Of a stretch of DNA of 64,000 nt, positions 8,355-58,538 are shown in pieces. The first letter of the stretch is position 1, and every line of letters begins with the position of its first letter. Made by a program: the position numbers and the translations under genes. The notes beneath the pieces were generated by a model, which worked only from the letters and a program-made list of their open reading frames with translations, was not told the DNA's origin and did no database searches. The DNA is taken from positions 1,512 to 65,511 of the forward strand of contig JAHECY010000006.1 in assembly GCA_024641505.1 (NCBI GenBank), in the 5' to 3' direction. The stretch is from Gammaproteobacteria bacterium (GTDB taxonomy: Bacteria > Pseudomonadota > Gammaproteobacteria > SG8-11).

Positions 8355-9339
8355 GGCCGGGCTCCAGACATGTGCTAATGTCATCGGTGGTGCTGCAGGT
8401 GCGCAGCGCAACGCCGGCTTGTTTGCAACAAGCTTGCAGCACCCATTGCCGTTGCTGAAACAGTTCCTGGTACCGTTGTCGCTGCGTGTGATCCCGGGCA
8501 TCGATGCGCAACTCCTGCGCTACGTCGCCGGTATCGATCAGATAGGCACCGGTCGCGGGCAGACGCTGCTCCACCGGATCGAGTATCTGCTGCGCACGTA
8601 CCGTATGTCGGGCGGCAAGTTGCTGTAACAGCGGCGCGGCAAGTTGCGCGTCGAACGCGGCAAAGTCGCTGAGCAGTAACACGAAACTGCCGCCCGGCAT
8701 CCGATGCGCCAGGTGTCCCAGGATCGAATGCAGATGCGCGTGCGGCGCATCGAAGGCCAGCGGCGTACACGGCGCGATCAGCTGCGCCAGCAAGCCCTGG
8801 GTCAACTGCGCGCCGGCGGCCGGGGCATGCCACTGCGACTCCTGATTCAAAACGCAACCACCTACCGCCAACCCCAGGGACCGCGCGTATTGCAAATAGC
8901 ACACCGCGATTCGCGCCGCAAGCGTGACCTTGAGTTGCCGACGCGTGGCGAAGCGCATGGTGGGACCACGGTCCACCACCAGATACACCTGGGGTCGCCG
9001 CTCCTCCATGAACACCTTGGTGTACAGGGCACCGCTGCGCGCATACAAGCGCCAGTTCAACAAGCGTGGCTCGTCACCAGGTTGGTAGGGCCGATGTTCT
9101 TCAAATTCAAAGCCGCGACCTCGATAAATCGAGGCATGTTCGCCCGTCAAGGCGTGGCTGCTGTGCTGTTGAAAACTGAACAGGGACTCCGGCAACTGTT
9201 GGGTCACAAGCGCCAGACGTTGCAGTTCAGCGTCGTCCAGCAAGGGCCTATGCGTCGGCGCGGGCTTGCCGCCAAAACGCCGGCGATACCGGGTCCACCG
9301 CTCCAGTATCCTATGCGCCGGAGTCATGATGATGTTCAC
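8344..9339 (-). CDS. DUF58 family protein (VWA-like, MoxR partner)
   Basis: 331-aa ORF overlapping the moxR stop by 4 nt (ATGA). Canonical position downstream of MoxR. Conserved DUF58-type stretch (RGRGFEFEEHRPYQPGDEPRLLNWRLYARSGALYTKVF). Confidence 0.65.
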   Translation of the reverse strand: MNIIMTPAHRILERWTRYRRRFGGKPAPTHRPLLDDAELQRLALVTQQLPESLFSFQQHSSHALTGEHASIYRGRGFEFEEHRPYQPGDEPRLLNWRLYARSGALYTKVFMEERRPQVYLVVDRGPTMRFATRRQLKVTLAARIAVCYLQYARSLGLAVGGCVLNQESQWHAPAAGAQLTQGLLAQLIAPCTPLAFDAPHAHLHSILGHLAHRMPGGSFVLLLSDFAAFDAQLAAPLLQQLAARHTVRAQQILDPVEQRLPATGAYLIDTGDVAQELRIDARDHTQRQRYQELFQQRQWVLQACCKQAGVALRTCSTTDDISTCLEPGHGR

Positions 9340-10325
9340 GGCACGGGGATCGCATCCACCAGTCCTTTGATAAGATCATTCGCCGACAGTTGTTTGGCTT
9401 TGGCGGTAAAGCTGAGAATCATCCGGTGACGCAGCACATCGGCGGCGACATCGATGACATCATCGGGAATTACATAGGCACGGCCCTGTAAATAGGCATG
9501 GGCACTGGCGGCTCGGGCCAAGGCGAGCGTGGCTCGGGGCGAAGCACCGTAGTGGATATGGTCGCGCCAGTCGGGTAACCATTTTTCCGGATGCCGCGTG
9601 GCATTAACCAGGCTCACCATATAGCGTTTCACGCTCTCTTCGAGGTGAATCTCCGCGACTTCACGCCGGGCGGCCAACACGGTGGCCGGTTGCAGTTGGC
9701 TCTCCACCGCTTGTTGGTCCGCGCCGAAGTGTAAACGCCGGTCGCGTTCCAGAATTTGAAATTCCTCTTCTTCGCTGGGATAGTCGATCACCACATGCAG
9801 TAGAAAGCGATCCAGTTGCGCTTCCGGCAAGGGATAGGTACCCGCTTGCTCCAGGGGATTTTGCGTCGCCATCACCACGAACAGGTCCGGTAATCGATGG
9901 CTTTTCCCGGCGATGGTCACCTGCTGTTCCTCCATGGCTTCCAGCAATGCCGATTGCACTTTGGGCGGCGCACGGTTGATTTCGTCGGCGAGGATGATTT
10001 CCTTGAATAATGGGCCCTCGACAAAACGAAAATCCCCGGTCTTGGGATCGAAGACCTCACTGCCTGTAATGTCCGCGGGCATCAGATCCGGTGTGAACTG
10101 GATACGCTGAAATCCCGCGTGCACGCCGCTGGCTACCGCCTTTACCGCCGTGGTCTTGGCCAGGCCCGGCGCGCTCTCCAACAGTAAATGCCCGCCGGTC
10201 AGCAGGCCGATCATGATCCGATCCAGCAGCTGGTGTTGCCCGACAATGATACTTTCCAGATGACGGCGTAAAGTGAGAAATTCCGGTTGCGTGTGCATGG
10301 CTATGGCTCTGGGGATCAAGAACAT
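9336..10325 (-). CDS. MoxR-family AAA+ ATPase
   Basis: LLLESAPGLAKTT Walker A and the typical MoxR body (ILADEINRAPPKVQSALLEAMEEQQVTIAG). 329 aa. Confidence 0.85.
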   Translation of the reverse strand: MFLIPRAIAMHTQPEFLTLRRHLESIIVGQHQLLDRIMIGLLTGGHLLLESAPGLAKTTAVKAVASGVHAGFQRIQFTPDLMPADITGSEVFDPKTGDFRFVEGPLFKEIILADEINRAPPKVQSALLEAMEEQQVTIAGKSHRLPDLFVVMATQNPLEQAGTYPLPEAQLDRFLLHVVIDYPSEEEEFQILERDRRLHFGADQQAVESQLQPATVLAARREVAEIHLEESVKRYMVSLVNATRHPEKWLPDWRDHIHYGASPRATLALARAASAHAYLQGRAYVIPDDVIDVAADVLRHRMILSFTAKAKQLSANDLIKGLVDAIPVP

Positions 10326-10335: not shown

Positions 10336-10960
10336 AATTTAAGCTGTATGCGTAGGGTGCGAGACGGTGTAACAACCGCGGCTGAAAGGCGCTGCGCAAA
10401 GAATCGGCTTCATCACACCACTGAAGCGCCAGTATCGCTTGGTGCGTAATACGCACCCTACGTGCCACTTGCGCTTGGTTTGTGACGCCGATCAATGTTG
10501 TTACGCAACCCCATTTCCCGTCTGCGATAACGGTGGTATTCTCGATTGGCAAGTAAGATGGTATCAAATTAAAAAATTGTAGGGTGCGTATTACGCACCG
10601 TCTTTATGCTTTATCCAAAGGATTGCCTGGCTCCAAACAAAACACCTAGTGGGTAACAACCGATTGTAGGGTGCGTATTACGCACCGTCTTTTGCTATAT
10701 CCAAGAGATTGCCTGGCTCCAAACAAAACACCTAGTGGGTAACAACCGATTGTAGGGTGCGTATTACGCACCGTCTTTATGCTTTATCCAAAGGATTGCC
10801 TGGCTCCAAACAAAACACATAGTGGGTAACAGCCGATTGTAGGGTGCGTATTACGCACCGTCTTTTGCTATATCCAAGAGATTGCCTGGCTCCAAACAAA
10901 ACACATAGTGGGTAGCAACCGATTGTAGGGTGCGTATTACGCACCGGCTTTTGCTCTTTC
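10336..10960. repeat. REP (palindromic GTAGGGTGCGTAWTACGCACCCTAC) cluster, including a tandem array of five copies at about 86-87 bp spacing with alternating A/B sub-units
   Basis: Palindrome copies begin at about 10347 (partial), 10441, 10578, 10665, 10751, 10838 and 10924. Spacer variants ccgtctttatgctttatccaaaggattgcc and ccgtcttttgctatatccaagagattgcc alternate. Confidence 0.85.
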
Positions 10961-11251
10961 CAAGCGTTTGCTGCGCACCAATAAGAGACATGGTGCGCAA
11001 TACCTGCCCAGGGCACTTCCATTTAAACTGATTCTAACTATTCAATCGCGGTTTTATCGTTTTTTCCTACATCGACACCCAATCTTATCATTGCTCGTTA
11101 TTAACTCCCCGAGGTGGATAAATCCCCTCCTGAAAGTCTATGTAATTACCGTATTTCAGGGCTTCTCGACCCTTACTATTCTGGTAAACTCTCCAGGTCT
11201 TCGAGCGGTACCCAGATCGGTCACCGTTACGTTTTCCACAGGGGGGAAACC

Positions 11252-12817
11252 ATGGACGTCTTGACCACCCACGCTTCGACATCGGGCGACGCCAATCCAT
11301 TGATAAAATTGCGCGCCTGGCAGCGCTTCCATGTGCGCTTGACGGGACTCTATGGGGGAACCGTGCTGGTCTGCCTGTTGCTGATCGGCTTTATCTTTTA
11401 TGCCTCGGGCGTGGACGCCGAAATTCAAGGTCTGCAAAAACGCCTGTTAGCCATGGTCAGCAGCCTGGCCGCCTCGGTGGACGGTGACAAAGTCAGCGCC
11501 ATTCCCCTGGACAGCGGCGAAAATTCTTCTTTTCACCGCGCCATCAAACAACGGTTTCAGGAAGTGGCTGATCTCGACCCTGACGTGGCGACTATTTACA
11601 TCCTGCGGCCTACCAACGAACCGACCAAATTGCGGTTCCTGGTGGATTACGTCAAAGACGGCGAGGAAGGCAAACCCGGCGAGGCTTACGATGCCACCGA
11701 CATACCGGTGATGCTCAAAGGTTTCGCCGCCCCCGCCGTGGAGAACGAGCCCTATACGGATCAGTTCGGCACCACCCTTTCCGGATACGCGCCGATCTAT
11801 AGCAGCACCGGTAAAAGCGTCGGCATCGTCGGCGCTGATGTTCATGTCTCCCGCCTCACCATTTTGGAGCATCAGGTGCGCAACGTGGTGGTGCTGGTGT
11901 TTGGCATTGCGGTACTTCTGATCAGTCTGGTTTCGTTGGCCGTGGCGCACAGCGTGCGCACGCCGCTGAGTAAAATCATCAATGCCGCAGCCGCCGTTGC
12001 CCGCGGCGATTACACGACCCGTATCGATCTCAAGCGTAACGATGAATTCGGCTTGATGAGTCAACACTTCAATAATATGGTGCATGGTCTCAAGGACCGG
12101 GAATTCATCCGGGAAACCTTCGGCCGCTATATGAGTCATGACCTGGCAACCGCCGTACTCAGCACCGAGAAGATGCCGCAACTGGGTGGCGAGGAACGGG
12201 TGGTCACGGTGCTGTTCAGCGATCTGCGGGGCTACTCCACCATGGCGGAACGCCTGCCACCGGTGGCGGTCGTGGAAATGCTCAATGAATATCTTGGTGA
12301 AATGAACGTACTGATCGACAAGTATCACGGGTGCGTGATCGAATTTCTGGGAGATGCCATCCTCGCCGTGTTCGGCGCGCCCTCCTATCAACCGGATCAC
12401 TCGGAAAACGCCGTGCGCTGCGCGATGGAAATGCGCGTGCGTCTGGCGGAACTGAATCAGCGCTGGAGCCAATCGGGATTGGCGCGTTACTGGAAGGGCA
12501 AAGCCCTGGAAAATTGGGGGCTGCGCATCGGCATCCACGCCGGCCCGGTGGTGGCGGGCAATATCGGCAGCCCGACACGCATGAAATACACCGTGATCGG
12601 CGATACCGTTAATGTCGCCGCGCGTCTGGAAAACTTGAACAAGACACTGAAAACCGATGTGCTGATCAGCGATGAAGTGTACGATCATCTGCCCGATGCG
12701 CTGGTGGGCCAGATGAAGGATCAGGGCCAGCACCAGGTGAAAGGGCGGGAACAATCCGTCAGCGTTTACTCCCTGGAAGCCTTGCATGTCGCCAAGGTGG
12801 TTCGATTTTCGAAATAG
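11252..12817 (+). CDS. Membrane-bound adenylate/guanylate cyclase with periplasmic sensor region, HAMP domain and class III cyclase domain
   Basis: Start set at the internal ATG at 11252, preceded by GGGGGGAAAC. Two TM helices flank a roughly 170-aa extracytoplasmic region. HAMP (RIDLKRNDEFGLMSQHFNNMVHGLKD). Cyclase core VVTVLFSDLRGYS...IEFLGDAILAVFGAP...GIHAGPVVAGNIGS...YTVIGDTVNVAARLE. Confidence 0.8.
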   Translation: MDVLTTHASTSGDANPLIKLRAWQRFHVRLTGLYGGTVLVCLLLIGFIFYASGVDAEIQGLQKRLLAMVSSLAASVDGDKVSAIPLDSGENSSFHRAIKQRFQEVADLDPDVATIYILRPTNEPTKLRFLVDYVKDGEEGKPGEAYDATDIPVMLKGFAAPAVENEPYTDQFGTTLSGYAPIYSSTGKSVGIVGADVHVSRLTILEHQVRNVVVLVFGIAVLLISLVSLAVAHSVRTPLSKIINAAAAVARGDYTTRIDLKRNDEFGLMSQHFNNMVHGLKDREFIRETFGRYMSHDLATAVLSTEKMPQLGGEERVVTVLFSDLRGYSTMAERLPPVAVVEMLNEYLGEMNVLIDKYHGCVIEFLGDAILAVFGAPSYQPDHSENAVRCAMEMRVRLAELNQRWSQSGLARYWKGKALENWGLRIGIHAGPVVAGNIGSPTRMKYTVIGDTVNVAARLENLNKTLKTDVLISDEVYDHLPDALVGQMKDQGQHQVKGREQSVSVYSLEALHVAKVVRFSK

Positions 12818-13045: not shown

Positions 13046-13253
13046 ACATCACATTTTCAACATCATGCACCCTATTTGTTCAAAATATTCAGCCATTTAT
13101 AAAACCTTACATATGTTCTCCCTGTAAAGAATTATTACAAATAGACGACAAATGCACTAAGGATTTTAACTGAGTTGTTTACTTTGTTTTACACCTAATA
13201 CAGTGACAACGACTCATTTGCCTTGAATATAACCCCCAAGAGGAGATCGACAC

Positions 13254-13664
13254 ATGCCATTGTTTACCTGGAGTAATGAATACAGCGTGGGCGTAGGTAC
13301 CATGGACAGCCACCACAAAACCCTGTTCGACATCATGAACAAGCTTCATGACGCCATGAAGCAGGGTCAGGCGGAAGACCGCATCGCCGCCACCATCCGC
13401 GAACTGGTGGACTACACTGTATATCACTTCGGTGAAGAAGAAAAAATCATGGAGCGTATCAACTATGCCGGTATCGGCGCGCAAAAACGCGAACATGTCG
13501 TATTTGTGGACAAAATGAACGAGTATAAAGCCAAGGCGGACAAGGGTCAGGCTATCTTCACCGTGGCGGAAGTCGCGGCGACCTCTGTGACATGGCTGCG
13601 GGAACACATTCTGGGCATGGACAAGAAATACGAAGAAACTATGAAGGCGCACGGGATCAAATGA
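13254..13664 (+). CDS. Bacteriohemerythrin (hemerythrin-like O2/iron-binding domain protein)
   Basis: 136 aa. MPLFTWSNEYSVGVGTMDSHHKTLFDIMN...HF.EEE...H motifs typical of single-domain bacterial hemerythrins. Good RBS (agaggag). Confidence 0.8.
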   Translation: MPLFTWSNEYSVGVGTMDSHHKTLFDIMNKLHDAMKQGQAEDRIAATIRELVDYTVYHFGEEEKIMERINYAGIGAQKREHVVFVDKMNEYKAKADKGQAIFTVAEVAATSVTWLREHILGMDKKYEETMKAHGIK

Positions 13665-13682
13665 TCTCTGGTCACTGACCTG

Positions 13683-13722
13683 ACCTCGGGGGGTGCGCAT
13701 CGCACCCCCCTTTTTTTTCCCC
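13683..13722 (+). terminator. Rho-independent terminator after hemerythrin gene
   Basis: ggggggtgcgcatcgcacccccc hairpin followed by a T-run (tttttttt). Confidence 0.6.
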
Positions 13723-14000
13723 CTCGGCAGTACGCAATCCCATTGCAGGTGCGCAGCGTCCCCGCCATTGGTGCTCCCCCCTCGATATTGCGGAATCACA
13801 TTTGGGATGCGCATCGCACCGCTTTTGTTGCGGCCCCTCGTTAGTGCGGAATCACATTCGGGGTGTGCATCGCCCACCCTTTAGTGCGCGCCCTCGACAG
13901 TGCGCACCTTGGGGGCGTATGACGCACCGATCTTTATCTGGTTTTGTCACCATCGAGAGCACATGAACGAAAAGCAAAAGCCGGTGCGTCATACGCACCC
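13683..14000. repeat. Cluster of about 5 degenerate REP-like palindromes (GGTGCG..CGCACC variants)
   Basis: ggtgcgcatcgcacc, gatgcgcatcgcacc, gtgtgcatcgcccacc, ggcgtatgacgcacc and ggtgcgtcatacgcaccctac lie in the convergent intergenic region. Confidence 0.6.
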
Positions 14001-15046
14001 TACGGGGGCAGAATGCTTTCCAGACCGGTAATATGGGTGGTATCGGCGTCACGAGCGAAAGAGGATTCGACAAGCCCGGTAATATCGTTCGTTGTTGACA
14101 ATCCGAAGTGCTGCATGAGATCGGCTATTTTCTGGATATCTGCGTCACGCGGCGCGTAGTTGTCGAAATCGATGCGGTTTTTGGGCGTGTTCAGGGTGTA
14201 CATCACCAGATCGTAGGGCTGACCCCAGTACTTGGAGGCAATGCGTCCGGCTTCCTCCGGATTCTGCTTGGCCCATTGCAGGGCCCGGGCGGCCGCGGTC
14301 ACCATATACTTCACCACCTCCGGCTCATCCTTGATCATGCGGTTTTTGATGATCGTGAGATTGCTGAAAAATCCGGGCCACACTTCCTCGGCATATTTAA
14401 ACTTCTTTGACTCTCCGGACATCAACGTCTTAGCGGCAAACGGTTCGCCGACATAGTACGCATCCAGCGCGCCGGAAGACAATGCCGCGGCCATATCCGG
14501 TGGATTCATTTCCACGACGTTGACCTGACCGGTGAGATTGGCTTTTTCCAATTGCTCCATGATACTCAGATTATGGCCTGAAAACCGCATGGGCACGGCG
14601 ACGGTCTTGCCAATCAAGTCATTCCAGGTATTGCCGTTGAGATCCTTGCGTACCACCAGGGTACTCTCATTGCGGTTACCGACGAGTATGATCTTGACGT
14701 CTTCGCCCTGCTGTCGCAGCACAACGGACAAAGGCGCGATGATAAACGCCGCGTCGATCTGATTATTGCGCAAAGACTCGCCCATTTCCGCGAACGAAGC
14801 GAATTTCAGGGCTTTAAAACGAATGCCTTTGGTTTCCTTGCTCACCTTGTCCAGAATTGGCGCCGCCAGATTGCTGAACACGGGCATATAGCCCATGGTA
14901 ATCACTTTGCGGTCGCTGTCTTCGTTATTGACGTATTCATGCATGAAGGTGATGAAAATCAACCATGCGGTAATCGCCGCCGACAGCTTCCATACCATGG
15001 GCATTTGAGATATGGGTCTAAAATTGTCCCGTTGATTGCTATCCAT
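14000..15046 (-). CDS. ABC transporter substrate-binding protein, NitT/TauT (nitrate/sulfonate/bicarbonate, NMT1-like) family
   Basis: 348 aa with an N-terminal TM/signal (WKLSAAITAWLIFITF) and an NMT1/SsuA-like body. Alternative start at 15004. Confidence 0.75.
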   Translation of the reverse strand: MDSNQRDNFRPISQMPMVWKLSAAITAWLIFITFMHEYVNNEDSDRKVITMGYMPVFSNLAAPILDKVSKETKGIRFKALKFASFAEMGESLRNNQIDAAFIIAPLSVVLRQQGEDVKIILVGNRNESTLVVRKDLNGNTWNDLIGKTVAVPMRFSGHNLSIMEQLEKANLTGQVNVVEMNPPDMAAALSSGALDAYYVGEPFAAKTLMSGESKKFKYAEEVWPGFFSNLTIIKNRMIKDEPEVVKYMVTAAARALQWAKQNPEEAGRIASKYWGQPYDLVMYTLNTPKNRIDFDNYAPRDADIQKIADLMQHFGLSTTNDITGLVESSFARDADTTHITGLESILPP

Positions 15047-23812: not shown

Positions 23813-26272
23813 CTAGCTGATCTTGAACTGCGCTACCTGGCGTGCGAGAGCTTCTGACTGCTCCACCATGGTTTCCATGATGTCAGCGTTGGCGCCGGCA
23901 CCTTCCACCGTTTGCACCGCCGCTTGTCCCGATTCCTGGGACAGCTTGGTAATCGCCTTGGAACGTTGCGCCTGCAGACCGGTCATATGCTGCATTTCCT
24001 CACCGCTTCGTACTACACCTTCCATTTCATGACCGATGATGCGAGCGTTTTCATTAGCTTCCATAACCAGCGCCGAGATCTTGTTCGACGCCTGCAACAT
24101 CTTACGCAGCGAATCTTCCGCAACGGTACGACGCTTGGTATTTTCCGTAGCCATTTCACCGATTTGTTGCGCCAATGTGTTCAACTCGCGAATCAAACCC
24201 TGTACTTCAGTGGTACTGCCACTGAGGGACTCCGCCGAACGTTCGATGTCTTCGATGGAGCGCATGTTATCGCGACCGCCTTCGTCGATTTTGCGCAGCG
24301 CTTCCTGGGACTGGTCAGTCAGTTTTACCCCGTCCGCCACGTTGTTTGTGGAGTCCTTGATGAGCTGGGTGATTTCCTTGGCGGCCTCGGAAGACCGCTG
24401 GGCGAGTTTACCTACTTCATCCGCAACCACCGCGAAACCCTTACCGTGCGCACCGGCACGCGCCGCTTCTACCGCGGCGTTCAAGGCGAGCAAGTTGGTT
24501 TGTTCGGCGATTTCCGTGATTACCGAGATGATTTCCGAAATCTGTTCGGAAGATCCAGCGATGGCGCGCATACCTTCTACGGTAGCGGCCACTGCTTTCC
24601 GGCCTTCTTCCGCCGCTGCCAGCGAACCGCGACCGAACTGGGTCGCCTGTTGTACGGAACGTTGCATGGTATCCACCGCCGCCACCATTTCGTTGATAGC
24701 GCTGGTGACTCGCATTACCATCTTGCCCTGTTCCTGCGCGGACACCGCCACTTTCGCACCGGCATCACCCATTTCCGATACGCGGGACATGGTTTCGCCC
24801 GCTTCCCGGTCCTGGTTCCGTTGGGATTCGGATACGATACTCATCTTTTCCTGCAATTCGCGCAACAGCCCTGAGGATTTTTCCGCAGCGCCCTGCTGAC
24901 CACCGGCTTTTTCGTTGATCTGACCGGCGGTGGCGCCCATTTCCCCGATAACCTTTCCTGCAGTTTGGGAACGATTGAGCTCTTCCTCGGCACGCTTTCT
25001 GTTGTTGCCGGCGCGAGTCGCGGCTTCCGTGGCGTTTCTGGCGACATCACCGGCCGCGGAGTTTACCTCGACAAACGCGTTCTTGATAACATCCATCATA
25101 CCGTTGAACGATAACGACATGGCGCCGATTTCATCCTTGGATTCCACCGGCACATGAATGGTAAGGTCGCGTTTCTCGGCGATGTTCTGAATGGTGTCCG
25201 CCATCCGGATAACCGGACCCGCGATCACCCGGGTCAAGAACACAATCAATATTGCGCTGATCAGCAAGCCGGCTACCAGCAGGCCCCATTCGATGTTTTT
25301 CAAGCGTACGGTAAGAGTCGCCGCGGACGCTACGTCGTCCTGCAGCAATTTGTCCTGGCTTTCCACCAATTCAGAAAGCACCTCAACGATCGCCTTAGCG
25401 GTCGGTGCAGCGCGGGTCGCCAGCCAGAAATTGGCCAGGTTAGCTTCGGCGGAAGCCTGGATCTTAAACATCTTCTCGGGCAACGGTTCGAATTCCGCGC
25501 GTACCTGTTTGAACTGGTCAAATGCCAGTTTTTGTTCCGGTGACAGGTGCTGGTAATTATTGGCCAGGTCATTGAAACGCAGGGTATTCTTGGACCATAG
25601 ATTTTCGAAGCTGGTTTTCAAGGACTCATCTTTGGTGAGCAGGTAGGCGCGAATACTCGCCAAACCCAGACCGGTGGTACCGCGCACGTCAGCCATCATG
25701 TACAGAATGGATTTGCGTAATGGCGTACCCTCCAACTGGCCTTCCAAGTCGATCATGCGCGTGATCAACTCGGCGAGCTTGGCGGATCGCGGCTGTGCTT
25801 CTTCCGCCAGCATTTTCAGCGCCGGTTCCTGATCGACAGTGTTGGCGATGTCTTCGACTTCCTGCTGGTACTTGCGGAACAACTCCAGTTCCTTGCCGAT
25901 TTTATCAACGCGCTTGATGTTTTCCGCGTTGGTAAAATTTTTCGAGAATCCCTGCAACGCATCGAAGTTTTTGTCGATCCAGTTTTTCCAGCTCTCATCT
26001 CGTTGGGTCTTAAATTGTTCTTTACCCAAAAGCATCCAACCACGCAATGCCGCCAATGATTCGTTGACGCCGTTCAACAAGGAAAGACTGGCGCGGGCCA
26101 CCGGTGTTCGCAGTTCCGCAACCCGATTCGACAGAGTTTGCACCTCTGTTACCTCATAGATCGTTATACCTACCGCTGATACGAGCAACAATGCCATCAT
26201 GCCGAAGCCTGTGCCCAGCTTGAATGGCAGTCTCATATTAGCAAAGAGACCAAAGTTGGTATTCTTAGCCAC
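23813..26272 (-). CDS. Methyl-accepting chemotaxis protein with about 290-aa periplasmic helical sensor, HAMP and MCP signalling domain
   Basis: TM1 [17 protein letters not shown] and TM2 [21 protein letters not shown]. The highly conserved signalling tip [35 protein letters not shown]. No C-terminal NWETF-like pentapeptide. Confidence 0.9.
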
Positions 26273-26360
26273 TTTCTTTCCTCCGTTTCACCTGAATTAA
26301 GGCCAAATGCTGTGTGGTGGGCAAAAAAGCCGCTTTCACCAAGAGCGCAGGACCCGCGTT

Positions 26361-28700: not shown

Positions 28701-31025
28701 ATGCTTGAACCTAATGAAAAGGAGAGTTTGTTGTCGGATGCGGCGCACACCGACGTTAGCGAAACGCCGGAATACACCGATGTTGCCGTCGATTTAGACA
28801 ACAATGATGTTCTAGAACTGCAGAATAATTTGCAGGCCACGATCAAGGAACTTGCCGATGCCATGGATGCGGAAAATATGCAGCGACAGATGGTATTGCA
28901 GGCTGAACAACGCGACCAGGCCGAGCGCGCAATTGATGTTGAAATGTCCCACCCGCTCGATTCCGTAGAACATACTCCAAGCGCCGATTTTGAAATCCAT
29001 GACGCAGTTACCGTTTCCGCGACATCGACATCGGGGGTTACCGATAACCTGTCGCTGGATGAACTGCTGGCGGCGTTGAATATCAGCACCCTACCGCGGC
29101 CCGACGCGGTTGACGACAGCACCACCGAGACCACAAACGACATGCCGACCCAGGTACCGCGCATCGAGAACCTGTGGCAGGAACTCGGGGAAATCTGGCC
29201 GGTAATAACGCACCATCCTGAGGTGGTAACCAACATCGAGGAATTGTGGAGCAGGCTCAAGGAGGCGCACCATACTGGCACGCTGGGCACCGAACTTTCC
29301 CAGTTGTATTCTAAATTGACCGACGACGATACCGCTAACCCAGCACCGACGACCGCGCCACTTCGCAACAGTGATGAAGTTGCGGATATAGTCAGCCGTA
29401 TTCTTGCCGGAGTAAAGACCCGGGATATCATCAACGACACCGGTCCAGATGCGTCTGTTGCAGCGCCTCTCGCGAAACAGGGTACCGAGGAATTCGACGT
29501 CGACAATTTCCTGCAACGCTATGCCATGGACGCCGAACCCGCCCCGGCGGCCACCGTCGTACCCAAGGTTACTGAAAATCGCCAGAAAAAACCCAACACC
29601 GGCAACAAACTCACGATCAGTGCTGACGAGCTGGCGATACTGGAAAATATTCTGGGCGACCGCCTGGACCGTAACGCCATTGGCGCACCGGCGCTTGACC
29701 ATGACGCTGACGAAGTAAATACCGGGGGACATCCGCATTCTGACTCGCGGGAGATTGTCTCCCAGCCAAAACCAAACGGCACCGACCCGGCACCCATAAA
29801 AGACGTGGAACAGCCGGCGCGGCACAGCCGGTCGACCCATAAGTCTCCGTCGCGCAAGGCACACAAGTCAAGCGCGACCCACGCGACACCGACATCACCG
29901 GTTCCGTACCAGCCGGCACATACAGTTGCCAGTGCCGACGTCTCGGCGCTGGATACCAATGAAACTGATGACGATGCTGATAAAAAGTCCTACTGGCTGC
30001 CGCGCGTCACGGCCGCACTGGTAATTGTCGGTATTGCCTGGCTGTGGTTAAGTAGCGGTTCCGAGCAGGACCTCGTCGCCACCCAGGATGCAACCCGGGA
30101 AACCCGCAACGGCATGTCGCCGACACAACTTGCGGAAAATGAAAATTCAAAAACCCTCGCGGAAAGTAAAGCCGAGTACCGCCGGGCTGCGGAACAAGAG
30201 CATGCGCGCGTCGTCAGCGCCGCTGCTGCCCGCAAGACAGTCCCGAACGACAACCGTCCGATGATGCCAGGGGCGGGCAATGACACTGAAGCCAAGCGGC
30301 CCAGGGAGCTCAGTACTACAGAAGTCGCCAGCCAAATCCCGGGTACCGCAGGCGGTACCGGTGCGCCATCTGGCGTCACTGGAGACCACGTGCAAGCCCC
30401 TCCGGCCGTACAAAGTCTCGCCACCGGCTCGGTGCCCGTCGTGCCCGCGAATTCTTCGGAGCTGACGCAAAATACCGCCTACAACACGCTCACCGAAACC
30501 TTGAACCTATCCACGCAGAACATTCAAAATCTGGTCGATGGTTCCCTGGATCGTTTGCGTACCAGCACCCAAAATGGTTTGCAGGATCTTTCCCAACGTG
30601 TCAATCGGCTGGAAGACGCTATTGGCAAATTACACGCCGCCATAGAGTCCCTGTTGCACCAGAATAATGAGGCGCGCGCCGACCAAAACCGGAGTTTATC
30701 AGCATTGGGAGAGCGACTTGATGGTTTGGAAACCGCGCAAAAAAAGGCCTTTAATGCCAGAATCGAACGCGACAAGGAAGGCGTGACCATCGTGCTGACG
30801 GAACCACGCGCTGGCCGCACCGGCGAAAGTGGCGCCGACGGTACCTATGATGTGATCGTGCACACCGTGGTCAAAGGCGACACCCTGTGGGATATCGCCG
30901 CCAAGTATATCAACGATCCGTTTCGTTATCCGGAACTGGCCAAACTGAGCAAAATCAAGAACCCGGACCGTATCTTCCCCGGAGACCGGGTGCGTATCGT
31001 CCGACGTTATGTCACTGAACCGTAA
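28701..31025 (+). CDS. Large acidic single-pass membrane protein with C-terminal periplasmic coiled coil + LysM domain (HubP/FimV-like, reversed domain order)
   Basis: 774 aa. The N-terminal roughly 430 aa is highly acidic, low complexity, and has no signal peptide. One TM (YWLPRVTAALVIVGIAWLWLSS) is preceded by KK/R. C-terminal LysM (YDVIVHTVVKGDTLWDIAAKYINDPFRYPELAKLSKIKNPDRIFPGDRVRI). The minus ORF 28679-29506 is an antisense shadow. Confidence 0.6.
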   Translation: MLEPNEKESLLSDAAHTDVSETPEYTDVAVDLDNNDVLELQNNLQATIKELADAMDAENMQRQMVLQAEQRDQAERAIDVEMSHPLDSVEHTPSADFEIHDAVTVSATSTSGVTDNLSLDELLAALNISTLPRPDAVDDSTTETTNDMPTQVPRIENLWQELGEIWPVITHHPEVVTNIEELWSRLKEAHHTGTLGTELSQLYSKLTDDDTANPAPTTAPLRNSDEVADIVSRILAGVKTRDIINDTGPDASVAAPLAKQGTEEFDVDNFLQRYAMDAEPAPAATVVPKVTENRQKKPNTGNKLTISADELAILENILGDRLDRNAIGAPALDHDADEVNTGGHPHSDSREIVSQPKPNGTDPAPIKDVEQPARHSRSTHKSPSRKAHKSSATHATPTSPVPYQPAHTVASADVSALDTNETDDDADKKSYWLPRVTAALVIVGIAWLWLSSGSEQDLVATQDATRETRNGMSPTQLAENENSKTLAESKAEYRRAAEQEHARVVSAAAARKTVPNDNRPMMPGAGNDTEAKRPRELSTTEVASQIPGTAGGTGAPSGVTGDHVQAPPAVQSLATGSVPVVPANSSELTQNTAYNTLTETLNLSTQNIQNLVDGSLDRLRTSTQNGLQDLSQRVNRLEDAIGKLHAAIESLLHQNNEARADQNRSLSALGERLDGLETAQKKAFNARIERDKEGVTIVLTEPRAGRTGESGADGTYDVIVHTVVKGDTLWDIAAKYINDPFRYPELAKLSKIKNPDRIFPGDRVRIVRRYVTEP

Positions 31026-31852: not shown

Positions 31853-32608
31853 ATGGAAGCACTGGGCCTGATCATCGCCGGCGTCTGCATCGCGTCCGCC
31901 GCCATGGCCGTCGGTATTGGCGGCGGTATCTTATGGACGCCATTGCTGATCCTGGCTTACGGTTTAACACCTCAGGAAGCGGTAGCCACGTCGCTGATGA
32001 TCCAGGTGGTGGGCATGGGCAGCGGCACCCTGGCCTATATGAAGGCCAAACTCACCCAGGTAAAACTCAGCCTGGTGTTTTTCTGTGCCGCGCTACCCGG
32101 CGTCATTATCGGCGGCTTCCTGAGCGTGCATCTCTCCCAGGACGCCGTGCAAATGATGTTGGGCGTGATGGCCATGACCGTGGCGGTATTGTTCGTCGCC
32201 GGCCAGGATCAGTTCAGTGAAGGCGGCAATTACGCGCCGGACCGGCGCAATATCGGCAAGTTACTGCCGATTCCGGCATTCTTCGGTTTCATGATGGGCA
32301 CCCTGTCCGTGGGGATCGGCGAGTGGCTGGTGCCGGCGCTGCGCCAGCGCCTGCATCTGGAAATGCGCCAAGCCATCGGCACCGTGATCCCGGTAATGTT
32401 TCTGCTCGCCATCTGCGCCTCCCTGGTCCACTGGAGTCAATCGGACAGCCTGCACTTGAACTATTTCGCCTATGGCGGCATCGGCACCTTTGTCGGCGGC
32501 CAGATCGGGCCGCGCATTTCCCAACGCATTGACGAACGCATCTTGAAACAAAGCTTTATCTATCTGATGACCTTGATCGGCATACATATGATTTTTCAGG
32601 CGATCTGA
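31853..32608 (+). CDS. TauE/SafE (DUF81) family anion exporter membrane protein
   Basis: 251-aa polytopic protein with the typical internally duplicated 4-TM architecture and a GIGGG motif. Begins 4 nt after the preceding stop. Confidence 0.7.
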   Translation: MEALGLIIAGVCIASAAMAVGIGGGILWTPLLILAYGLTPQEAVATSLMIQVVGMGSGTLAYMKAKLTQVKLSLVFFCAALPGVIIGGFLSVHLSQDAVQMMLGVMAMTVAVLFVAGQDQFSEGGNYAPDRRNIGKLLPIPAFFGFMMGTLSVGIGEWLVPALRQRLHLEMRQAIGTVIPVMFLLAICASLVHWSQSDSLHLNYFAYGGIGTFVGGQIGPRISQRIDERILKQSFIYLMTLIGIHMIFQAI

Positions 32609-32745
32609 GCCGATTCCGACTTTCGCGCCCGTAAAACCCAAGGCAAAAGTTCAGCGCGGTGCGTAATACGCACCCTTATACGTCTTTGGTCGGCATACAT
32701 ATGATCTTACCGGTGATCTGAGTCGACCCCGACTTCCGGTCACGC
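32575..32745. repeat. REP copy flanked by a roughly 55-bp direct duplication of the tauE-like gene 3-prime end
   Basis: cggcatacatatgatttttcaggcgatctgagccgattccgactttcgcgcc appears again as cggcatacatatgatcttaccggtgatctgagtcgaccccgacttccggtcacg after the REP ggtgcgtaatacgcacc at about 32657. Confidence 0.8.
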
Positions 32746-46229: not shown

Positions 46230-47444
46230 TCAGGTGCGGTATTCCGCGTTGATACGCACGTAATCGTGGGAGAAGTCGCAGGTCCAGACGGTATGACTGG
46301 CGACACCCCGTTGCAAATCGACGGTCACCGTGATTTCCTCCCGGTCCATCACTGCCTGACCACGGGCCTCGGTATATTCCGGATGACGCTCGCCACCGGC
46401 AACGATACAGACGTCATCCAGCAGAATCCGCACTTTGCTCAGATCCAGGGCCGACACGCCCGCGCGCCCGACAGCCGCCAGAATACGCCCCCAATTGGGA
46501 TCACTGGCGAAGAACGCTGTTTTCACCAAAGGCGAATGGGCAATGGTAAAAGCCACGGCTCCGCACTCGTCCTTGTCGGCACCCCCGGTCACGGTCACGG
46601 TAATAAATTTGGTAGCGCCCTCACCGTCGCGAATCACCAGTTGCGCCAGCGTTTGACACAGCTCCAGCAACGCGGCCTTGAACGCAAGGAACCCGGCGCT
46701 GCCAACGGCGAGCCGCGTCTTGTGCGCTTTCCCGGTGGCCACCAATATCAGGGAATCATTGGTGGACGTGTCGCCATCGACGGTAATACAGTTGAAGGAA
46801 TCCCGCACCACCTCCTGCAACAGCATCTGCAAATCCCCGGCGTTCAGGCTGGCATCAGTGGCGATGAATGACAATAAGGTCGCCATATCGGGCCGAATCA
46901 TGCCGGCGCCTTTGACGATGCCCGTCAATGTAATGGTACGACCCTCGATATTGCGCTGCAGGGAAACACCCTTGGGCAGGGTATCCGTGGTCATAATCGC
47001 GTGCGCCGCGGGATTCCAGTCACTGGCACTGTTACTCAATGCGTGCACCAGACCGGCGGTGATCTTGTCCATGGGTAAATATTCGCCGATCACGCCCGTG
47101 GAAAACGGCAGCACTTGTTCCGGCGCGCAACCGACCAATGCCGCGAACGCCCGGCAGGTGGTCAATGCATCCTGCATCCCGCGCGCACCGGTACCGGCAT
47201 TGGCGTTACCGGTATTGATCACCAGATATCGAGTTTGATCGGTTTGCAGGTGCTGCTTGCACACCTGCACCGGCGCCGCGCAAAATGCATTGCGTGTGAA
47301 CACACCCGCCACCGCGCTGCCCGTCGCGATTTCCATCACCGCCAGATCCTGGCGACCGGGTTTCTTGATCCCCGCCGCGGTGGTGCCCCAGCGTACCCCC
47401 GCCACCGGCAGCAAAACCGGCAATGCGTGATAACCTACAGCCAT
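46230..47444 (-). CDS. argJ: Bifunctional ornithine acetyltransferase / N-acetylglutamate synthase ArgJ
   Basis: 404 aa. Self-cleavage site region ...ATTDTLPKG...MLSFIATDA. Typical ArgJ N-terminus (VRWGTTAAGIKK). Confidence 0.9.
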   Translation of the reverse strand: MAVGYHALPVLLPVAGVRWGTTAAGIKKPGRQDLAVMEIATGSAVAGVFTRNAFCAAPVQVCKQHLQTDQTRYLVINTGNANAGTGARGMQDALTTCRAFAALVGCAPEQVLPFSTGVIGEYLPMDKITAGLVHALSNSASDWNPAAHAIMTTDTLPKGVSLQRNIEGRTITLTGIVKGAGMIRPDMATLLSFIATDASLNAGDLQMLLQEVVRDSFNCITVDGDTSTNDSLILVATGKAHKTRLAVGSAGFLAFKAALLELCQTLAQLVIRDGEGATKFITVTVTGGADKDECGAVAFTIAHSPLVKTAFFASDPNWGRILAAVGRAGVSALDLSKVRILLDDVCIVAGGERHPEYTEARGQAVMDREEITVTVDLQRGVASHTVWTCDFSHDYVRINAEYRT

Positions 47445-47461
47445 TAATCGTTACCTCCGTT

Positions 47462-47790
47462 GGGTGCATATTACGCACCGGCATTAAATCCAGAACAGCG
47501 CCTTCGTGTAATTAACAACACGGTGCGTAATACGCACCCTACGCCATGGTGCCGCGGCGTTGCTGGTATTTCTTAGCGAAACCGCAGCTCTTGCCCAAAC
47601 GAAGCCGGACTTCGCTCGAATTATAAACGCCGGTGCGTAATACGCACCCTACGCCATGGTGCCGCGGCGCTGCTGGTATTTCTTAGCGAAACCGCAGCTC
47701 TTGCCCAAACGAAGCCGGACTTCGCTCGAATTATAAACGCCGGTGCGTAATACGCACCCTACGCCATGGTGCCGTGGCACTGTTTGTATT
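47462..47790. repeat. REP copies plus two degenerate 110-bp tandem copies of the secA 3-prime terminus (stop codon + zinc-tail coding region)
   Basis: The units 47521-47630 and 47631-47740 each run REP - cta - cgccatggtgccgcggcg.... On the minus strand they read ...GKSCGFAKKYQQRRGTMA*, against the genuine SecA tail ...[17 protein letters not shown] at 47741-47850. An additional REP variant lies at 47462. Confidence 0.85.
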
Positions 47791-50506
47791 TCTTACCGGA
47801 ACCGCAGGGGCACGGCTCATTACGTCCCACTTTACGGCCGTCGCGCACGAAGGGTTGCGCATGCTGGTCACCACCGTGGGCGCCGGCTTGCGCGGCGGCC
47901 GGCGGGGTTTGCCCACTCGGCGTCGCATCGGGTTCACCTGCCATGGCGGAGGCATCCGCATGCTGATATTGCATCTTGATGCGTTGCCGACGCTGCTCTT
48001 CCACCGCCTGCACATCTTCTTCCGCCCGCACCTGCACCCGCGACACCACCTGGATCACATCACGCTTGAGGCGATCCAGCATGTTGCCGAACAGCTCAAA
48101 TGCCTCCCGCTTATACTCTTGCTTGGGATTCTTCTGCGCGTAACCGCGCAGGCCGATGCCCTGGCGCAGATAATCCATTTGTGCCAGATGATCCTTCCAC
48201 AGGGAATCCACCACCTGCAACATGACCGCCTTCTCAAAATGACGCATGGTCGCCTTGCCCGCCAGCGCCTCCTTGTGCTTGAACGCTTCCACCAGCTCCT
48301 CAAGCATCTTTGCGCGCAGCGTTTCCTCATGCAGGCTATGATCTTCTTCCAGCCACTTGCGCACCGGCATGCGCGTTGAAAATTCCACTTCCAGCGCATC
48401 TTCCAGGCCTTTCAGATCCCACTGTTCTTCCAGGCTGTTGCGGGGAATATAAAGATTGATGACGTTATTCACCACGTCCTGGCGAATATTGATAATCGTC
48501 TCCGAGATATCCTCGGACGCCATGAGTTCGTCGCGTTTTTCATAGATCGCCTTACGTTGATCATTGGCGACATCATCATATTCCAGCAATTGTTTACGCA
48601 TGTCGAAGTTGCGCCCCTCAACCTTGCGTTGCGCATTCTCGATGGCCTTGGTAACCCAGGGATGCTCGATCGCCTCGCCCTCCTGCATGCCCAGTTTCTG
48701 CATCATCGAGGACACGCGCTCCGACGCGAAGATGCGCATGAGGTTATCCTGCAGGGAAAGATAAAAGCGGCTGGAACCCGGATCGCCCTGACGACCGGAA
48801 CGGCCGCGCAACTGGTTGTCGACGCGCCTTGATTCATGGCGCTCGGTGCCGACCACATGCAACCCGCCAGCCTGAATCACCTGATCATGACGTTGCTGCC
48901 ATGCGGATTTAATCTCCGCCATCGCGCTGGCTTCCACGCTTTCCTGACGCGCCAACTCCGCATCCAGGCTGCCGCCGAGCACGATATCGGTACCGCGACC
49001 AGCCATGTTCGTAGCGATCGTCACCGCACCCGGACGCCCGGCATTAGCGACGATTTCGGCTTCCCGGGCGTGTTGCTTGGCATTGAGCACTTCATGCTTG
49101 ATTTTCTTCTTGTCGAGCAGGGAAGACAGGTACTCAGATACTTCGATGGAAACCGTACCTACCAGTACCGGCTGGCCACGACTTTGGCATTCGGTGATGT
49201 CCTCGATGATGGCGTCGTACTTTTCATTGGCGGTCAGATAGATCAGATCGCCTTGATCCTTTCTGGCGATCGGGCGGTTGGTGGGAATCACCACTACTTC
49301 CAGACCGTAGATTTGCTGGAACTCGAAGGCCTCGGTATCGGCGGTACCGGTCATGCCCGAAAGTTTTTTATAGAGACGAAAATAATTCTGGAAGGTAATC
49401 GACGCCAGCGTTTGGTTTTCCGCCTGCACGTCCAATCCTTCCTTGGCCTCTACCGCCTGATGCAAACCGTCGGACCAGCGCCGTCCCGGCATGGTGCGCC
49501 CGGTGAACTCGTCGACGATAATGACCTGCCCGTCCTTGACGATGTATTCCACGTTTTTTTGAAATAACGCGTGCGCGCGCAATCCGGCGTACAAATGGTG
49601 CATGAGGGTGATATTGGCGGGATCGTAAAGACTCTCCCCTTCGCCGATGAGTCCCGCCTGCTCCAGCATTTCCTCGGCTTTCTGGTGACCATCCTCGGTA
49701 AGGTAGACCTGGCGCGCTTTTTCATCGACGCTGAAGTCACCAGGCCCGTCTTCCACTTCCTGCTTGACGAGATTCGGTACCAGTACGTTGACTTTCTTAT
49801 ACAACTCTGAACTTTCGTCGGAGGCGCCGGAGATAATCAACGGTGTGCGTGCTTCATCGATCAGTATCGAGTCCACTTCATCGACCACGGCAAAATTCAG
49901 ACCACGCTGCACTTTGTCGGCAATACTGAACGCCATATTGTCGCGCAGATAATCGAAGCCATATTCGTTGTTGGTGCCGTAGGTGATATCGGTGGCATAG
50001 GCGGCGCGTTTTTCTTCCGTGGATTGGCCGGACAGAATCACACCCACGGTCATCCCCAGGAAATTATAGATCTTGCCCATCCACTCGGCGTCACGTCGCG
50101 CCAGGTAGTCGTTGACGGTGATGACATGCACACCCTTGCCGGACAAGGCGTTGAGATATGCCGCCAACGTCGCCACCAGGGTTTTACCTTCACCGGTCGC
50201 CATTTCGGAAATCTTGCCGCTGTGCAACACCATGCCGCCAATGAGCTGAACATCAAAATGGCGCATGCCGAGCACGCGTTTACCCGCCTCACGCACTACT
50301 GCAAACGCTTCCGGCAACAAATCATCCAAGGTCGCGCCTTGGGCGATACGTTCCCTAAACGCCACGCTCTTGGACTGCAACTGGGCATCATCCAGCGCGG
50401 CAATTTCCTGTTCCAAGGCATTAATGCGCTCGACATTCTTGTACATCTGTTTGATCAGCCGTTCGTTACGGCTGCCAAAAATCGTTTTCAGGGCTTTTTG
50501 CAGCAT
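47759..50506 (-). CDS. secA: Preprotein translocase ATPase SecA
   Basis: Start at [23 protein letters not shown] (ATG at 50506; the ORF-track extension to 50710 is upstream read-through). DEAD motor motifs. C-terminal zinc tail [14 protein letters not shown]. Confidence 0.92.
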
Positions 50507-53533: not shown

Positions 53534-54688
53534 TCAATCAGCCTGACGGCGCAAGAACGCAGGCACGTCCAGATAGTCCAGACTGGTGTCACGGTTCTTG
53601 TTGTATTGTTTCGACACATCCCGACGGATCACCGTGGGTCGATCCAGCTTGTCATAATCCACAAGACCATTAGTGCCATTTTGCACCAATTTCACTGGTT
53701 TGGATTCTTTGTGAACATCCTTGGCGGTTTTCTCCACCCCGAGACCGGTCGCCACCACCGTTACCCGCAATTCATCCTGCATGCTGGGATCAATGACGGT
53801 GCCGACCACCACGGTGGCGTTGTCGGAAGCGTATTCCTTCACCGCCAGACCCACTTCTTCGAATTCACCGATGGCGAGATTGAGACCCGCGGTGATATTC
53901 ACCAGCACGCCATGCGCCCCTTGCAGATTGATGTCCTCAAGCAGTGGGCTGCGAATGGCTTTTTCCGCCGCTTCCCGGGCCCTGCCATCACCGTGCGCAC
54001 TGCCGGTACCCATCATGGCCATACCCATTTCCGACATCACGGTGCGTACATCGGCGAAGTCCACATTGATCAACCCGGGACGGGTAATCAACTCCGCGAT
54101 ACCCTGCACGGCGCCCAGCAGCACATCGTTGGCGGCCTTGAACGCATCCAGCAAACTGATGTTCTTACCCAACACCGAAAGCAACTTGTCATTGGGAATC
54201 GTGATCAGGGAATCCACATGTTCCGACAACTGCCGAATGCCCAGATCGGCCGCGGCCATGCGTTTGCGGCCTTCAAAGGGAAACGGCTTGGTAATGACCG
54301 CGACCGTGAGGATACCCATGTCCTTGGCGATTTGTGCCACCACCGGTGCACCGCCGGTACCGGTACCACCGCCCATGCCGGCGGTAATGAACAGCATATC
54401 CGCGCCAGTGATGATTTCCGCGATGCGATCGCGATCCTCCAGAGCCGCCTGACGTCCGACTTCGGGATTGGCGCCGGCACCAAGACCCTTGGTGATACTG
54501 CTGCCCAATTGCATGATCACTTTGGACGAGGCATTTTTCAGCGCTTGCGCGTCGGTATTGGCGCAAATAAAATCGACACCCTCGATATTAGCCTGCACCA
54601 TGTGTTCCACGGCGTTACCACCGCCACCGCCAACGCCGATGACTTTGATAACCGCGTTCTGGGTATATGCATCCATTAATTCAAACAT
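53534..54688 (-). CDS. ftsZ: Cell division GTPase FtsZ
   Basis: [10 protein letters not shown] tubulin signature and GGGTGTG. 384 aa. Confidence 0.95.
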
Positions 54689-54721
54689 GTTTTGACCTCC
54701 ACTTGAGATGAGTGATGTGCG

Positions 54722-55940
54722 TCAGAAATTGCCTTTAAACCAATTCACCATACGCTGGAAAATTCCTTCCAAACCCGCATTACTTGGGTAATCCTGCCGC
54801 CGTTCTTCCTTGTGTTGAAGCCCGCATAACAGCAATCCCACGCCGGTGGCATGAATGGGATTCCTGACGACATCGACCAAACCAGTAACATACTGCGGAA
54901 TGCCAAGACGAACCGGCATGTGAAATACCTCCTCGGCCAGATCGATCAGACCTTCGATCTTGGCGCTGCCCCCGGTAACCACAACACCGGCGGCACACAT
55001 ATCCTCGAAACCACTGCGGCGCAATTCCGATTGCACCAACGACAACAACTCCTCGTATCTCGGCTCCACGACTTCCGCCAGGGTCTGCCGTGCCAGACGC
55101 CGTGAGGCACGATCACCGACACCGGCGACTTCGATGGTCTCGTCCGGGCTGGCGAGTTGCGTCAACGCGCACGCGTACTTGACCTTGATCTCCTCCGCAT
55201 GCTGGGTGGGTGTGCGGAGCGCGATGGCGATATCATTGGTCACCTGATCACCGGCGATGGGAATTACCGCGGTATGCTTGATCGAACCCTCGGTGAACAC
55301 CGCGATATCCGTGGTGCCACCACCGATATCCACGAGGCACACACCCAGCTCCTTCTCGTCTTCCGTCAGCACCGAATAGCTGGACGCCAGTTGCTCCAGA
55401 ATTATGTCTTGCACTTCCAGACCGCAGCGGCGCACGCATTTGATGATATTCTGCGCGGCGCTCACGGCGCCGGTCACCAGATGCACCTTGGCCTCCAGGC
55501 GCACGCCGGCCATGCCGATAGGATCACGGATGCCTTCCTGATTATCGATCACGAACTCCTGGGGCAGGATATGCAAAATTTTCTGATCCGCAGGAATCGC
55601 CACCGCGCGCGCCGCGTCAATGACGCGATCGACATCGCTCTGGCTGACTTCCTTGTCCCGAATGGCGACGATGCCATGGGAATTAAGACTGCGAATATGA
55701 CTGCCGGCGATACCGGCATACACGGAGCGAATCTGGCAACCGGCCATCAACTCCGCCTCCTCCACCGCGCGCTGAATCGACTGCACCGTGGAATCGATAT
55801 TTACCACCACGCCCTTTTTCAGGCCCCGCGAGGGATGGGACCCGATGCCGATGATCTCCACCTCGTTGTCCGGCGTAATCTCACCGGCGATCGCCACCAC
55901 TTTCGAGGTACCTATATCCAACCCCACGATCAGATTCTTG

Positions 55941-55957
<17 letters not shown>
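54722..55957 (-). CDS. ftsA: Cell division protein FtsA
   Basis: Start at MSKKADKNLIVGLDIGTSKV (ATG at 55957). Actin-like ATPase motifs. Confidence 0.9.

Positions 55958-58534
<2,577 letters not shown>

Positions 58535-58538
<4 letters not shown>

Follow-up and report, generated by a model that had tools for sequence, protein, structure and literature searches.

The spread and amplification of repetitive extragenic palindromic (REP) elements remain unsettled, and the models put forward (excision-reintegration, rolling-circle-like amplification, and host recombination) draw mainly on cleavage in vitro and on the patterns of the bacterial interspersed mosaic elements (BIMEs) of Escherichia coli. 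In one described class, the GTAG-tagged REPs, the termini often give the TAG stop codon of flanking open reading frames (ORFs) (Di Nocera, De Gregorio and Rocco 2013, PMC3733652), and the reiteration of REP clusters together with flanking DNA has already been published. In Pseudomonas fluorescens SBW25, clusters of REP doublets forming hairpins (REPINs) are tandem repeats that include the flanks, and a brief non-repeated segment usually lies between the units (Bertels and Rainey 2011, PMC3116915). Rolling-circle-like amplification of BIMEs by the transposase TnpA-REP has also been proposed (Ton-Hoang et al. 2012, PMC3333891). Here, we analyzed 64,000 nucleotides of DNA from a Gammaproteobacteria bacterium of the SG8-11 lineage (GenBank assembly GCA_024641505.1, contig JAHECY010000006.1, positions 1,512 to 65,511), in which the spacer between secA and argJ contains a cluster of REPs together with degenerate copies of the 3' end of secA. 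This whole stretch is referred to as the window, and all coordinates are window positions.

The secA-argJ feature is a GTAG-tagged REP cluster and represents a clear example of known REP-cluster behavior, not a new system. We propose, with a probability of about 65%, that a REP cluster colonized and expanded a normally short secA-argJ spacer and that the copies of the secA tail are by-products of local duplication.

Results

Four REPs occupy the spacer between secA and argJ

The secA coding sequence lies at 47759..50506 on the minus strand and, according to the ORF list and its translation, encodes 915 amino acids (aa) starting with MLQKAL and ending at a TAG stop codon (47759-47761). The probable start at 50506 is the first ATG that yields a typical SecA N-terminus. 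In the C-terminal 113 aa of SecA, the SEC-C motif PF02810 was detected with Pfam (E = 9.3e-12), and the CxCxSGx5CH motif is intact in this genuine tail. The argJ gene (46230..47444, minus strand, 404 aa, PF01960) starts with ATG at 47444-47442. The two genes, both on the minus strand, are separated by a spacer of 314 nt, and four REP copies occupy this gap.

Along the secA strand, the array begins with the 49 nt at the 3' end of the genuine secA, TAG included (designated T, 47759..47807, minus strand), which are the source of the pseudo-copies described below. The proximal REP (47742..47762, minus strand) consists of a GTAG head, which is the last 4 nt of T, and the 17-nt palindrome GGTGCGTATTACGCACC. 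It is followed by a 44-nt spacer that is not secA-like (S copy 1, 47698..47741, minus strand) and in which folding gave a small hairpin, CGAAG-TCCGG-CTTCG, and then by a 45-nt pseudo-copy of the secA tail (T', 47653..47697, minus strand), which belongs to the middle unit and reads CGFAKKYQQRRGTMA. The second direct REP, also with a GTAG head, is located at 47632..47652 (minus strand). The same order recurs in the distal unit, with a 44-nt S copy 2 identical to S copy 1 (47588..47631, minus strand), a second 45-nt pseudo-copy (T'', 47543..47587, minus strand), and the third direct REP (47522..47542, minus strand), which has a GTAG head and then GTGTTGTTAA and was scored as terminator-like. An inverted REP on the plus strand (47459..47479), with the head GTTG and the palindrome GGTGCATATTACGCACC (47463-47479), is the doublet partner of the third direct REP, and the 42-nt spacer of this REPIN-like doublet (R', 47480..47521, minus strand) is weakly similar to S (p ~0.02 by global alignment, p ~0.5 by local alignment). 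This fourth REP lies inside the interval covered by a preliminary description of the locus, made from the sequence alone, but is absent from that description. The GGAGG ribosome-binding site of argJ (47454-47458) directly abuts the head of the inverted REP. At the other end of the cluster, the REP abuts the secA coding sequence without lengthening SecA.

Two 110-nt units carry pseudo-copies of the secA tail

The preliminary description had reported two 110-nt units downstream of secA, each with a REP palindrome, the secA stop codon embedded in the arm of the REP, and about 85 bp of homology to the SecA zinc-tail coding region, and had attributed them to REP-mediated duplication. The units were recovered in our repeat search at 47521-47630 and 47631-47740 with 99% identity, and their sole difference (109/110) was T at 47560 versus C at 47670. 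Tandem Repeats Finder gave a period of 110 nt with 2.6 copies at 47521-47807, 96% matches, and 0 indels. The register-matched third copy (47741-47850), which extends into secA, showed 67% identity. The palindrome, GGTGCGTAATACGCACC on the plus strand, is present in each unit as well as next to secA (47522-47538, 47632-47648, and 47742-47758), and the CTAC that follows each GGTGCGTAATACGCACC on this strand corresponds to the GTAG head on the secA strand. Also as described, the secA stop codon at 47759-47761 falls inside the GTAG head.

Ungapped alignment of the three units supported the homology of the units to the secA tail, with 43/49 matches between T and T' (including its own GTAG), 42/49 between T and T'', and 48/49 between T' and T''. 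The extent of the homology had been overestimated, since it spans only 49 nt including the stop codon instead of ~85 bp. At its 5' end, the homology among T, T', and T'' breaks off abruptly at CTGCGG, and the similarity of S to the secA sequence upstream of the tail was no better than that of shuffled sequence (p = 0.89). The 45 nt before GTAG match the two pseudo-copies at 39/45 and 38/45, and no other site on either strand of the 64-kb window reaches a 28/45 match to the secA tail. When 80 related secA loci were searched for a match to their own tail within 1 kb downstream, the best match was 29/49 and the median was 23, compared with 43/49 here; a downstream copy of the tail was found in 0/80 of them. 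Compared with the relatives and with the rest of the window, the match is far beyond chance. Local copying of the secA 3' end together with a REP, followed by decay of the copies, agrees with the preliminary description; the REP, or a REP-associated tyrosine transposase (RAYT), would be no more than a candidate cause.

Relic nature of the pseudo-tails

The earlier translation of the units, CGFAKKYQQRRGTMA*, is correct when set against the genuine tail, with the preceding GKS read from GGC AAG AGC TGC. In the pseudo-tails, the last two zinc ligands, Cys and His, are replaced by Arg; one zinc ligand is kept, and the first Cys lies beyond the copied segment. No match to SEC-C (PF02810) was obtained at E <= 1 for the translation of the pseudo-tail, compared with 9e-12 for the true tail. 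The pseudo-tails are located behind the secA stop codon and, as 110 is not divisible by three, out of frame. They lack both a start codon and a ribosome-binding site, and no ORF or upstream homology accompanies T'. Judging from these features together, the pseudo-tails, which are copies of the final 15 secA codons, are non-functional relics that are not expressed as protein.

Other origins or uses of the array were considered and rejected. Stop-codon read-through or a frameshift into T' is not a plausible use, as read-through in the secA frame meets a TAA without reading T' in frame. Duplication of an attachment site by an integrative element does not fit because only 61 nt (REP and S) lie between T and T', with no ORF there. 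A CRISPR array was also dismissed, since the segments between the REPs (S and T') are themselves identical and no cas-like matches were found among 20 ORFs by Pfam. Searching the region against Rfam returned nothing at the gathering threshold or at E <= 1.

The REP belongs to a family with 16 copies in the window

The palindrome GGTGCGTATTACGCACC has 8-nt arms around one central base and is 21 nt long including the head. With the copies oriented by the head, the consensus reads GTAG-GGTGCGTATTACGCACC and continues into a T-rich stretch. The window contains 16 copies, compared with 0.23 expected, and 0/100 shuffled sequences reached 16. The head is GTAG in 12/16 copies and GTAA, GTTG, CTTG, or TAAG in the others. 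Apart from overlaps with stop codons, all 16 REPs are located outside likely genes. These copies have the features of GTAG-tagged REPs, namely, a short palindrome, a GTAG end, and many extragenic copies within the 64-kb window.

For three genes, namely, secA, 14000..15046, and 28701..31025, the stop codon comes from a REP head. The gene at 14000..15046 (minus strand) encodes an NMT1-like substrate-binding protein and takes its TAG stop from the REP head at 14000-14003. The gene at 28701..31025 (plus strand) encodes a LysM-domain protein and ends with TAA from a GTAA-variant REP head (31022-31025). The REP at 31026 has a head on both sides.

At secA, the REPIN-like doublet has two 23-nt arms (47458-47480 and 47521-47543) that show 91% complementarity, with 40 nt between them. 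The doublet thus shows the attributes of a REPIN, which are two inverted REPs, a short spacer, and the potential to form a single long hairpin. The inverted-doublet layout was also observed at 13912/13983 and 31100/31182. Tandem reiteration of a REP cluster with its flank is seen both in the 110-nt units and in a second array at 10576-10971. No RAYT gene was found within the window by an HUH/Y motif scan or by Pfam analysis of 20 ORFs. A literature search for the REP sequence GTAGGGTGCGTATTACGCACC did not find it and returned unrelated papers.

Local duplications in the window coincide with REPs or REP-like hairpins

The entire 64 kb was scanned for direct repeats of >= 35 nt within 500 nt. 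Four local direct-repeat families were detected, and all of them (4/4) are located at REP or REP-like hairpin clusters. The link of local duplications with REPs within the window is strong.

The second gene-tail case was found at a TauE-family gene (31853..32608; Pfam match to TauE). The segment 32573-32625 recurs at 32686-32738 on the plus strand with 44/53 matches (83%) and comprises the last 36 nt of the gene, the TGA stop codon, and 17 further nt. Both copies keep the frame and the stop codon (LIGIHMIFQAI* versus LVGIHMILPVI*), and a single REP (32658-32674) lies between them. The geometry at secA and TauE is similar, with a period of 110 versus 113 nt, a duplicated tail of 49 versus 53 nt, and 61 versus 60 nt in between. 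By contrast, the orientation of the TauE REP relative to the gene is opposite to that at secA, and there is no second REP at TauE. No similarity was detected between S and the 3' flank of the REP at the TauE locus. The presence of a second gene-tail case within 64 kb suggests a recurrent process.

The array at 10576..10971 (plus strand) is a REP tandem array with 4.6 copies of an 86/87-nt unit composed of a GTAG-REP and a 65/66-nt flank. It has a higher-order period of 173 nt with alternating subtypes (96% matches compared with 93% for the single period), and this two-level period indicates several rounds of amplification. Beyond the last REP, the array ends in a diverged copy of the flank. 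The array is situated in a divergent spacer between genes for a MoxR-type AAA ATPase (9336..10325, minus strand) and a HAMP-adenylate/guanylate cyclase (11114..12817, plus strand). An oppositely oriented REP is located nearby at 10441.

The remaining family follows a hemerythrin gene (13254..13664), after which a strong terminator-like hairpin, GGGGTGCGCATCGCACCCC, is found with a T-run (13688-13906 region). About three degenerate 56-nt tandem copies of this hairpin with its flank adjoin the REP doublet 13912/13983. A minus-strand ORF running across the hairpin repeats (13179..13877) has no Pfam match and is probably spurious.

Flanking direct repeats were not found around the REP at 10441, the doublet at 13912-13999, the whole cluster at 31026-31198, or the REPs at 31026 and 31182 taken singly. 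For the middle member of this cluster, the REP at 31100, the sole flanking match is to its two neighboring REPs. As these REPs lack a flanking duplication, duplication is not a general signature of insertion. The tail of the LysM gene and the flank of the REP at 31100 were compared as a possible third gene-tail case; no significant similarity was found (p = 0.16), and the candidate was discarded.

The secA-argJ spacer is expanded compared with related loci

Among the 80 related loci, argJ directly follows secA in 37. Spacer lengths in the relatives lie between -19 and 301 nt (median, ~39 nt), so the 314-nt spacer is expanded here. The SecA tails of the relatives are equal in length to the tail here, and most have two to three residues after CHG. 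None of them (0/80) ends in TMA*. In the array, T, T', and T'' share the same 13 nt after the motif (ACC ATG GCG TAG, encoding the terminal TMA*). In the 36 nt coding for the motif, T' matches T at 30/36, and the median for distant orthologues is also 30/36. None of the sampled orthologues is more similar to T' than T is.

Scanning genome contigs with the SecA C-terminus gave no relative above 66% identity, and scanning metagenome contigs with ArgJ gave none above 63%. In a search of 5.8 billion proteins, the nearest ArgJ was 76% identical; in that nearest relative, argJ is not beside secA and the GTAGGGTGCGTATTACGCACC-type REP is absent. At its argJ locus (L162), an AmiC-like amidase gene precedes argJ, and a direct repeat of its own of ~65 nt (GTCGCTCCGGGC.TCCTGCCCTCACGCGACATA...) occurs together with a different palindrome, GTGTACGTGGTACGCAC, at 5640-5780, within 600 nt upstream of argJ. 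An exact-sequence look-up of the 915-aa SecA returned no record.

Other features of the window

Four consecutive plus-strand ORFs (153, 110, 125, and 137 aa) at 880-2630 have no Pfam match at E <= 0.001. The GC content is raised (0.65) at 4-8 kb. At 26358-26390, the hexanucleotide GTTACT is repeated 5.5 times near the 5' end of an 819-aa minus-strand ORF (23813..26272); the repeat may belong to the upstream region, provided that translation actually begins downstream of the first GTG. The dcw/fts cluster is located on the minus strand at about 53534-63691. GC skew on the plus strand is negative in every 2-kb bin of the window (1-64000), and therefore the window lies on one replichore, with secA and the dcw/fts cluster running with replication.

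Discussion

A proposed stepwise history of the locus

The proposed colonization and expansion of the spacer by a REP cluster can be divided into three steps. First, a REP, probably as part of an inverted doublet (REPIN), would have settled against secA, and the TAG of its head would have become the secA stop codon. The present arrangement is observed; we infer the order of events. Second, in an older event, the last 45 nt of secA and the GTAG-REP would have been copied 44 nt further downstream. The six differences between T and T' presumably arose in the copy, because the genuine tail is held by selection. Third, in a recent event, unequal exchange or replication slippage between the REP-containing direct units would have added one 110-nt unit. 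The two ages are reflected in the 6/49 differences between T and T' and the 1/110 difference between the full units.

Several points weigh against this history. The array comprises 2.6 units, which is not an integer, and S has no identifiable source. A clean tandem duplication followed by one exchange fits only if R' is a strongly diverged S, and the similarity between them is weak. All of the differences between T and T' (6/6) fall in the 36-nt motif-coding part, and the three copies do not vary over the 34 nt that comprise the REP and the positions next to it; the probability of this pattern, (36/70)^6, is ~0.02. Judged from these alignments, such clustering is unlike simple neutral decay and suggests homogenization near the REP, or constraint. 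In the motif-coding part, T' (30/36) shows no greater similarity to T than distant orthologues do; T' is tied to the present lineage by the lineage-specific ACC ATG GCG TAG ending and the identical REP. The data fit host recombination or slippage and transposase-driven amplification alike, and no close relative was found for dating or ordering the steps (best 66% for the SecA C-terminus and 76% for ArgJ). As a likely consequence of the cluster, four stable hairpins would be present in the secA 3' untranslated region (UTR) between secA and argJ, and by analogy with established REP biology they may affect secA mRNA stability, termination, or argJ polarity. The array is otherwise a commonplace product of REP activity, with no evidence of a change to SecA.

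Alternative explanations

A transposase could have driven the amplification directly, which we regard as possible but unlikely. In this scheme, the Y1 transposase RAYT/TnpA-REP would nick DNA in single-stranded form within secA, at a C|T site 45 nt upstream of the REP; host polymerase would extend the 3'-OH, and a second cleavage downstream of the REP with strand transfer would add a unit containing host coding sequence. The model is a published one, and the enzyme cuts C|T both near the REP and at some distance from it (PMC3333891, PMC8266576). The GTAG head with a perfect short palindrome resembles the group 3 REPs of Stenotrophomonas, and the two independent gene-tail duplications at secA and TauE have a similar geometry. 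The homology between T and T' starts exactly at CTGCGG in both copies, which is compatible with such cleavage but is weak evidence. CT is expected at a junction by chance about once per 8 to 16 junctions, and the 3' boundaries are without CT. Moreover, no RAYT gene was found in the window by the motif scan or among the 20 ORFs analyzed with Pfam, the TauE REP is oppositely oriented relative to its gene and has no second REP beside it, and the other tested REPs and doublets are without flanking direct repeats.

It is quite unlikely, in our estimate, that the secA and TauE duplications are together the footprints of RAYT-driven rolling-circle-like amplification, or of a REP insertion that duplicates a target of ~50 nt. 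If they were, the upstream copy would restore the frame, and such events could strike even the final codons of an essential gene harmlessly. A datable record of REP dissemination, the mechanism of which has been called poorly understood in the literature, would then be available in the decayed coding copies.

Selection on the repeat unit as a functional element for secA or argJ (a structured 3' UTR, an attenuator, or a small RNA), with its copy number under selection, seems improbable. Folding of the 371-nt transcript region was more stable than that of shuffled sequence (z = -5.7), although the REP palindromes themselves explain this stability. The distal REP, together with the T-rich tail behind it, scored as terminator-like, but S and T' carry no recognizable signal. 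REPs near stop codons are reported to stall ribosomes and thereby reduce expression of the upstream gene (Liang, Rudd and Deutscher 2015). Against a function, the region gave no Rfam match at the thresholds stated above, no promoter-like site was found, including before argJ, and no close relative was found that would show conservation.

An assembly artefact, in which a repeat was collapsed or expanded so that the true number of units is different or zero, is very improbable. The source is a draft contig (93,876 bp), and the k=31 Logan assembly of run SRR12825371 breaks inside the REP, which indicates that the locus is hard to assemble; an exact look-up of ArgJ returned only a 1.7-kb Logan contig starting inside the REP. 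The distal junction in this contig (REP, R', inverted REP, and argJ) nevertheless agrees with that of the window, with the reservation that the run is perhaps not independent of the draft. The contig begins in the 30 nt common to all units, as expected if more than one continuation exists. The longest exact repeat is 104 nt (47561-47664 = 47671-47774), and because substitutions tell the three copies apart, a read or k-mer of more than ~105 nt suffices to place each unit unambiguously. Analogous structures are also present at three other places in the window. The copy number of the array is a lower bound, since identical middle units could have collapsed.

Lastly, the SEC-C motif (PF02810) occurs in proteins besides SecA, and in the motif-coding part T' is no more similar to this secA (30/36) than the tails of distant genomes typically are (median 30/36), but an origin of the pseudo-tails from a separate small SEC-C gene or a foreign secA fragment is extremely improbable given the 13 nt encoding TMA* that are identical in T, T', and T'' and that ending's absence from all 80 relatives, the identical adjacent REP in the three copies, the lack of an ORF, start codon, or upstream homology at T', and the lack of any sampled orthologue nearer to T' than T.

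Significance and comparison with known systems

The value of the secA case, with highly conserved coding sequence as the co-duplicated flank, is that the ancestral sequence of the flank is known, the original copy is unambiguous, and the relative ages of the steps are readable. In practice, assemblies from short reads break at such loci, and annotation could mistake the pseudo-tails for small ORFs or SEC-C fragments.

The REPs described here resemble GTAG-tagged REPs in their perfect short palindrome, the GTAG at one end, their high local copy number, and their location mostly downstream of genes (PMC3733652). They differ in that the co-duplicated flank is recognizable coding sequence of an essential gene, and because the flank at secA is coding sequence, the direction and relative age of the events can be read. 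As in P. fluorescens SBW25, an inverted REP doublet with a short spacer is present (47459-47542 here), and near-identical tandem units with flank are arranged in order, with a short unrepeated gap comparable to the alternation of T-REP, S, and T'-REP. Unlike the SBW25 clusters, the units here hold single direct REPs and not whole REPINs.

The local tandem addition of REP units and the C|T-compatible junction are shared with the amplification of BIMEs, and the perfect palindrome with a GTAG head is shared with group 3 REPs (PMC3333891; Corneloup et al. 2021, PMC8266576). In E. coli, however, a BIME unit consists of paired REPs and linkers, and inclusion of host coding sequence in such a unit has not been described; in addition, no enzyme was found in the window here. 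Chromosomal tandem duplications in Salmonella with direct REPs at their join points were reportedly described by Shyamala, Schneider and Ames in EMBO J in 1990. In these duplications, direct REPs are reported to act as short homologies, which is the role proposed here for the recent 110-nt step. The Salmonella duplications are reportedly kilobase-sized and laboratory-selected, whereas the duplication downstream of secA is 110 nt long and fixed in a natural genome.

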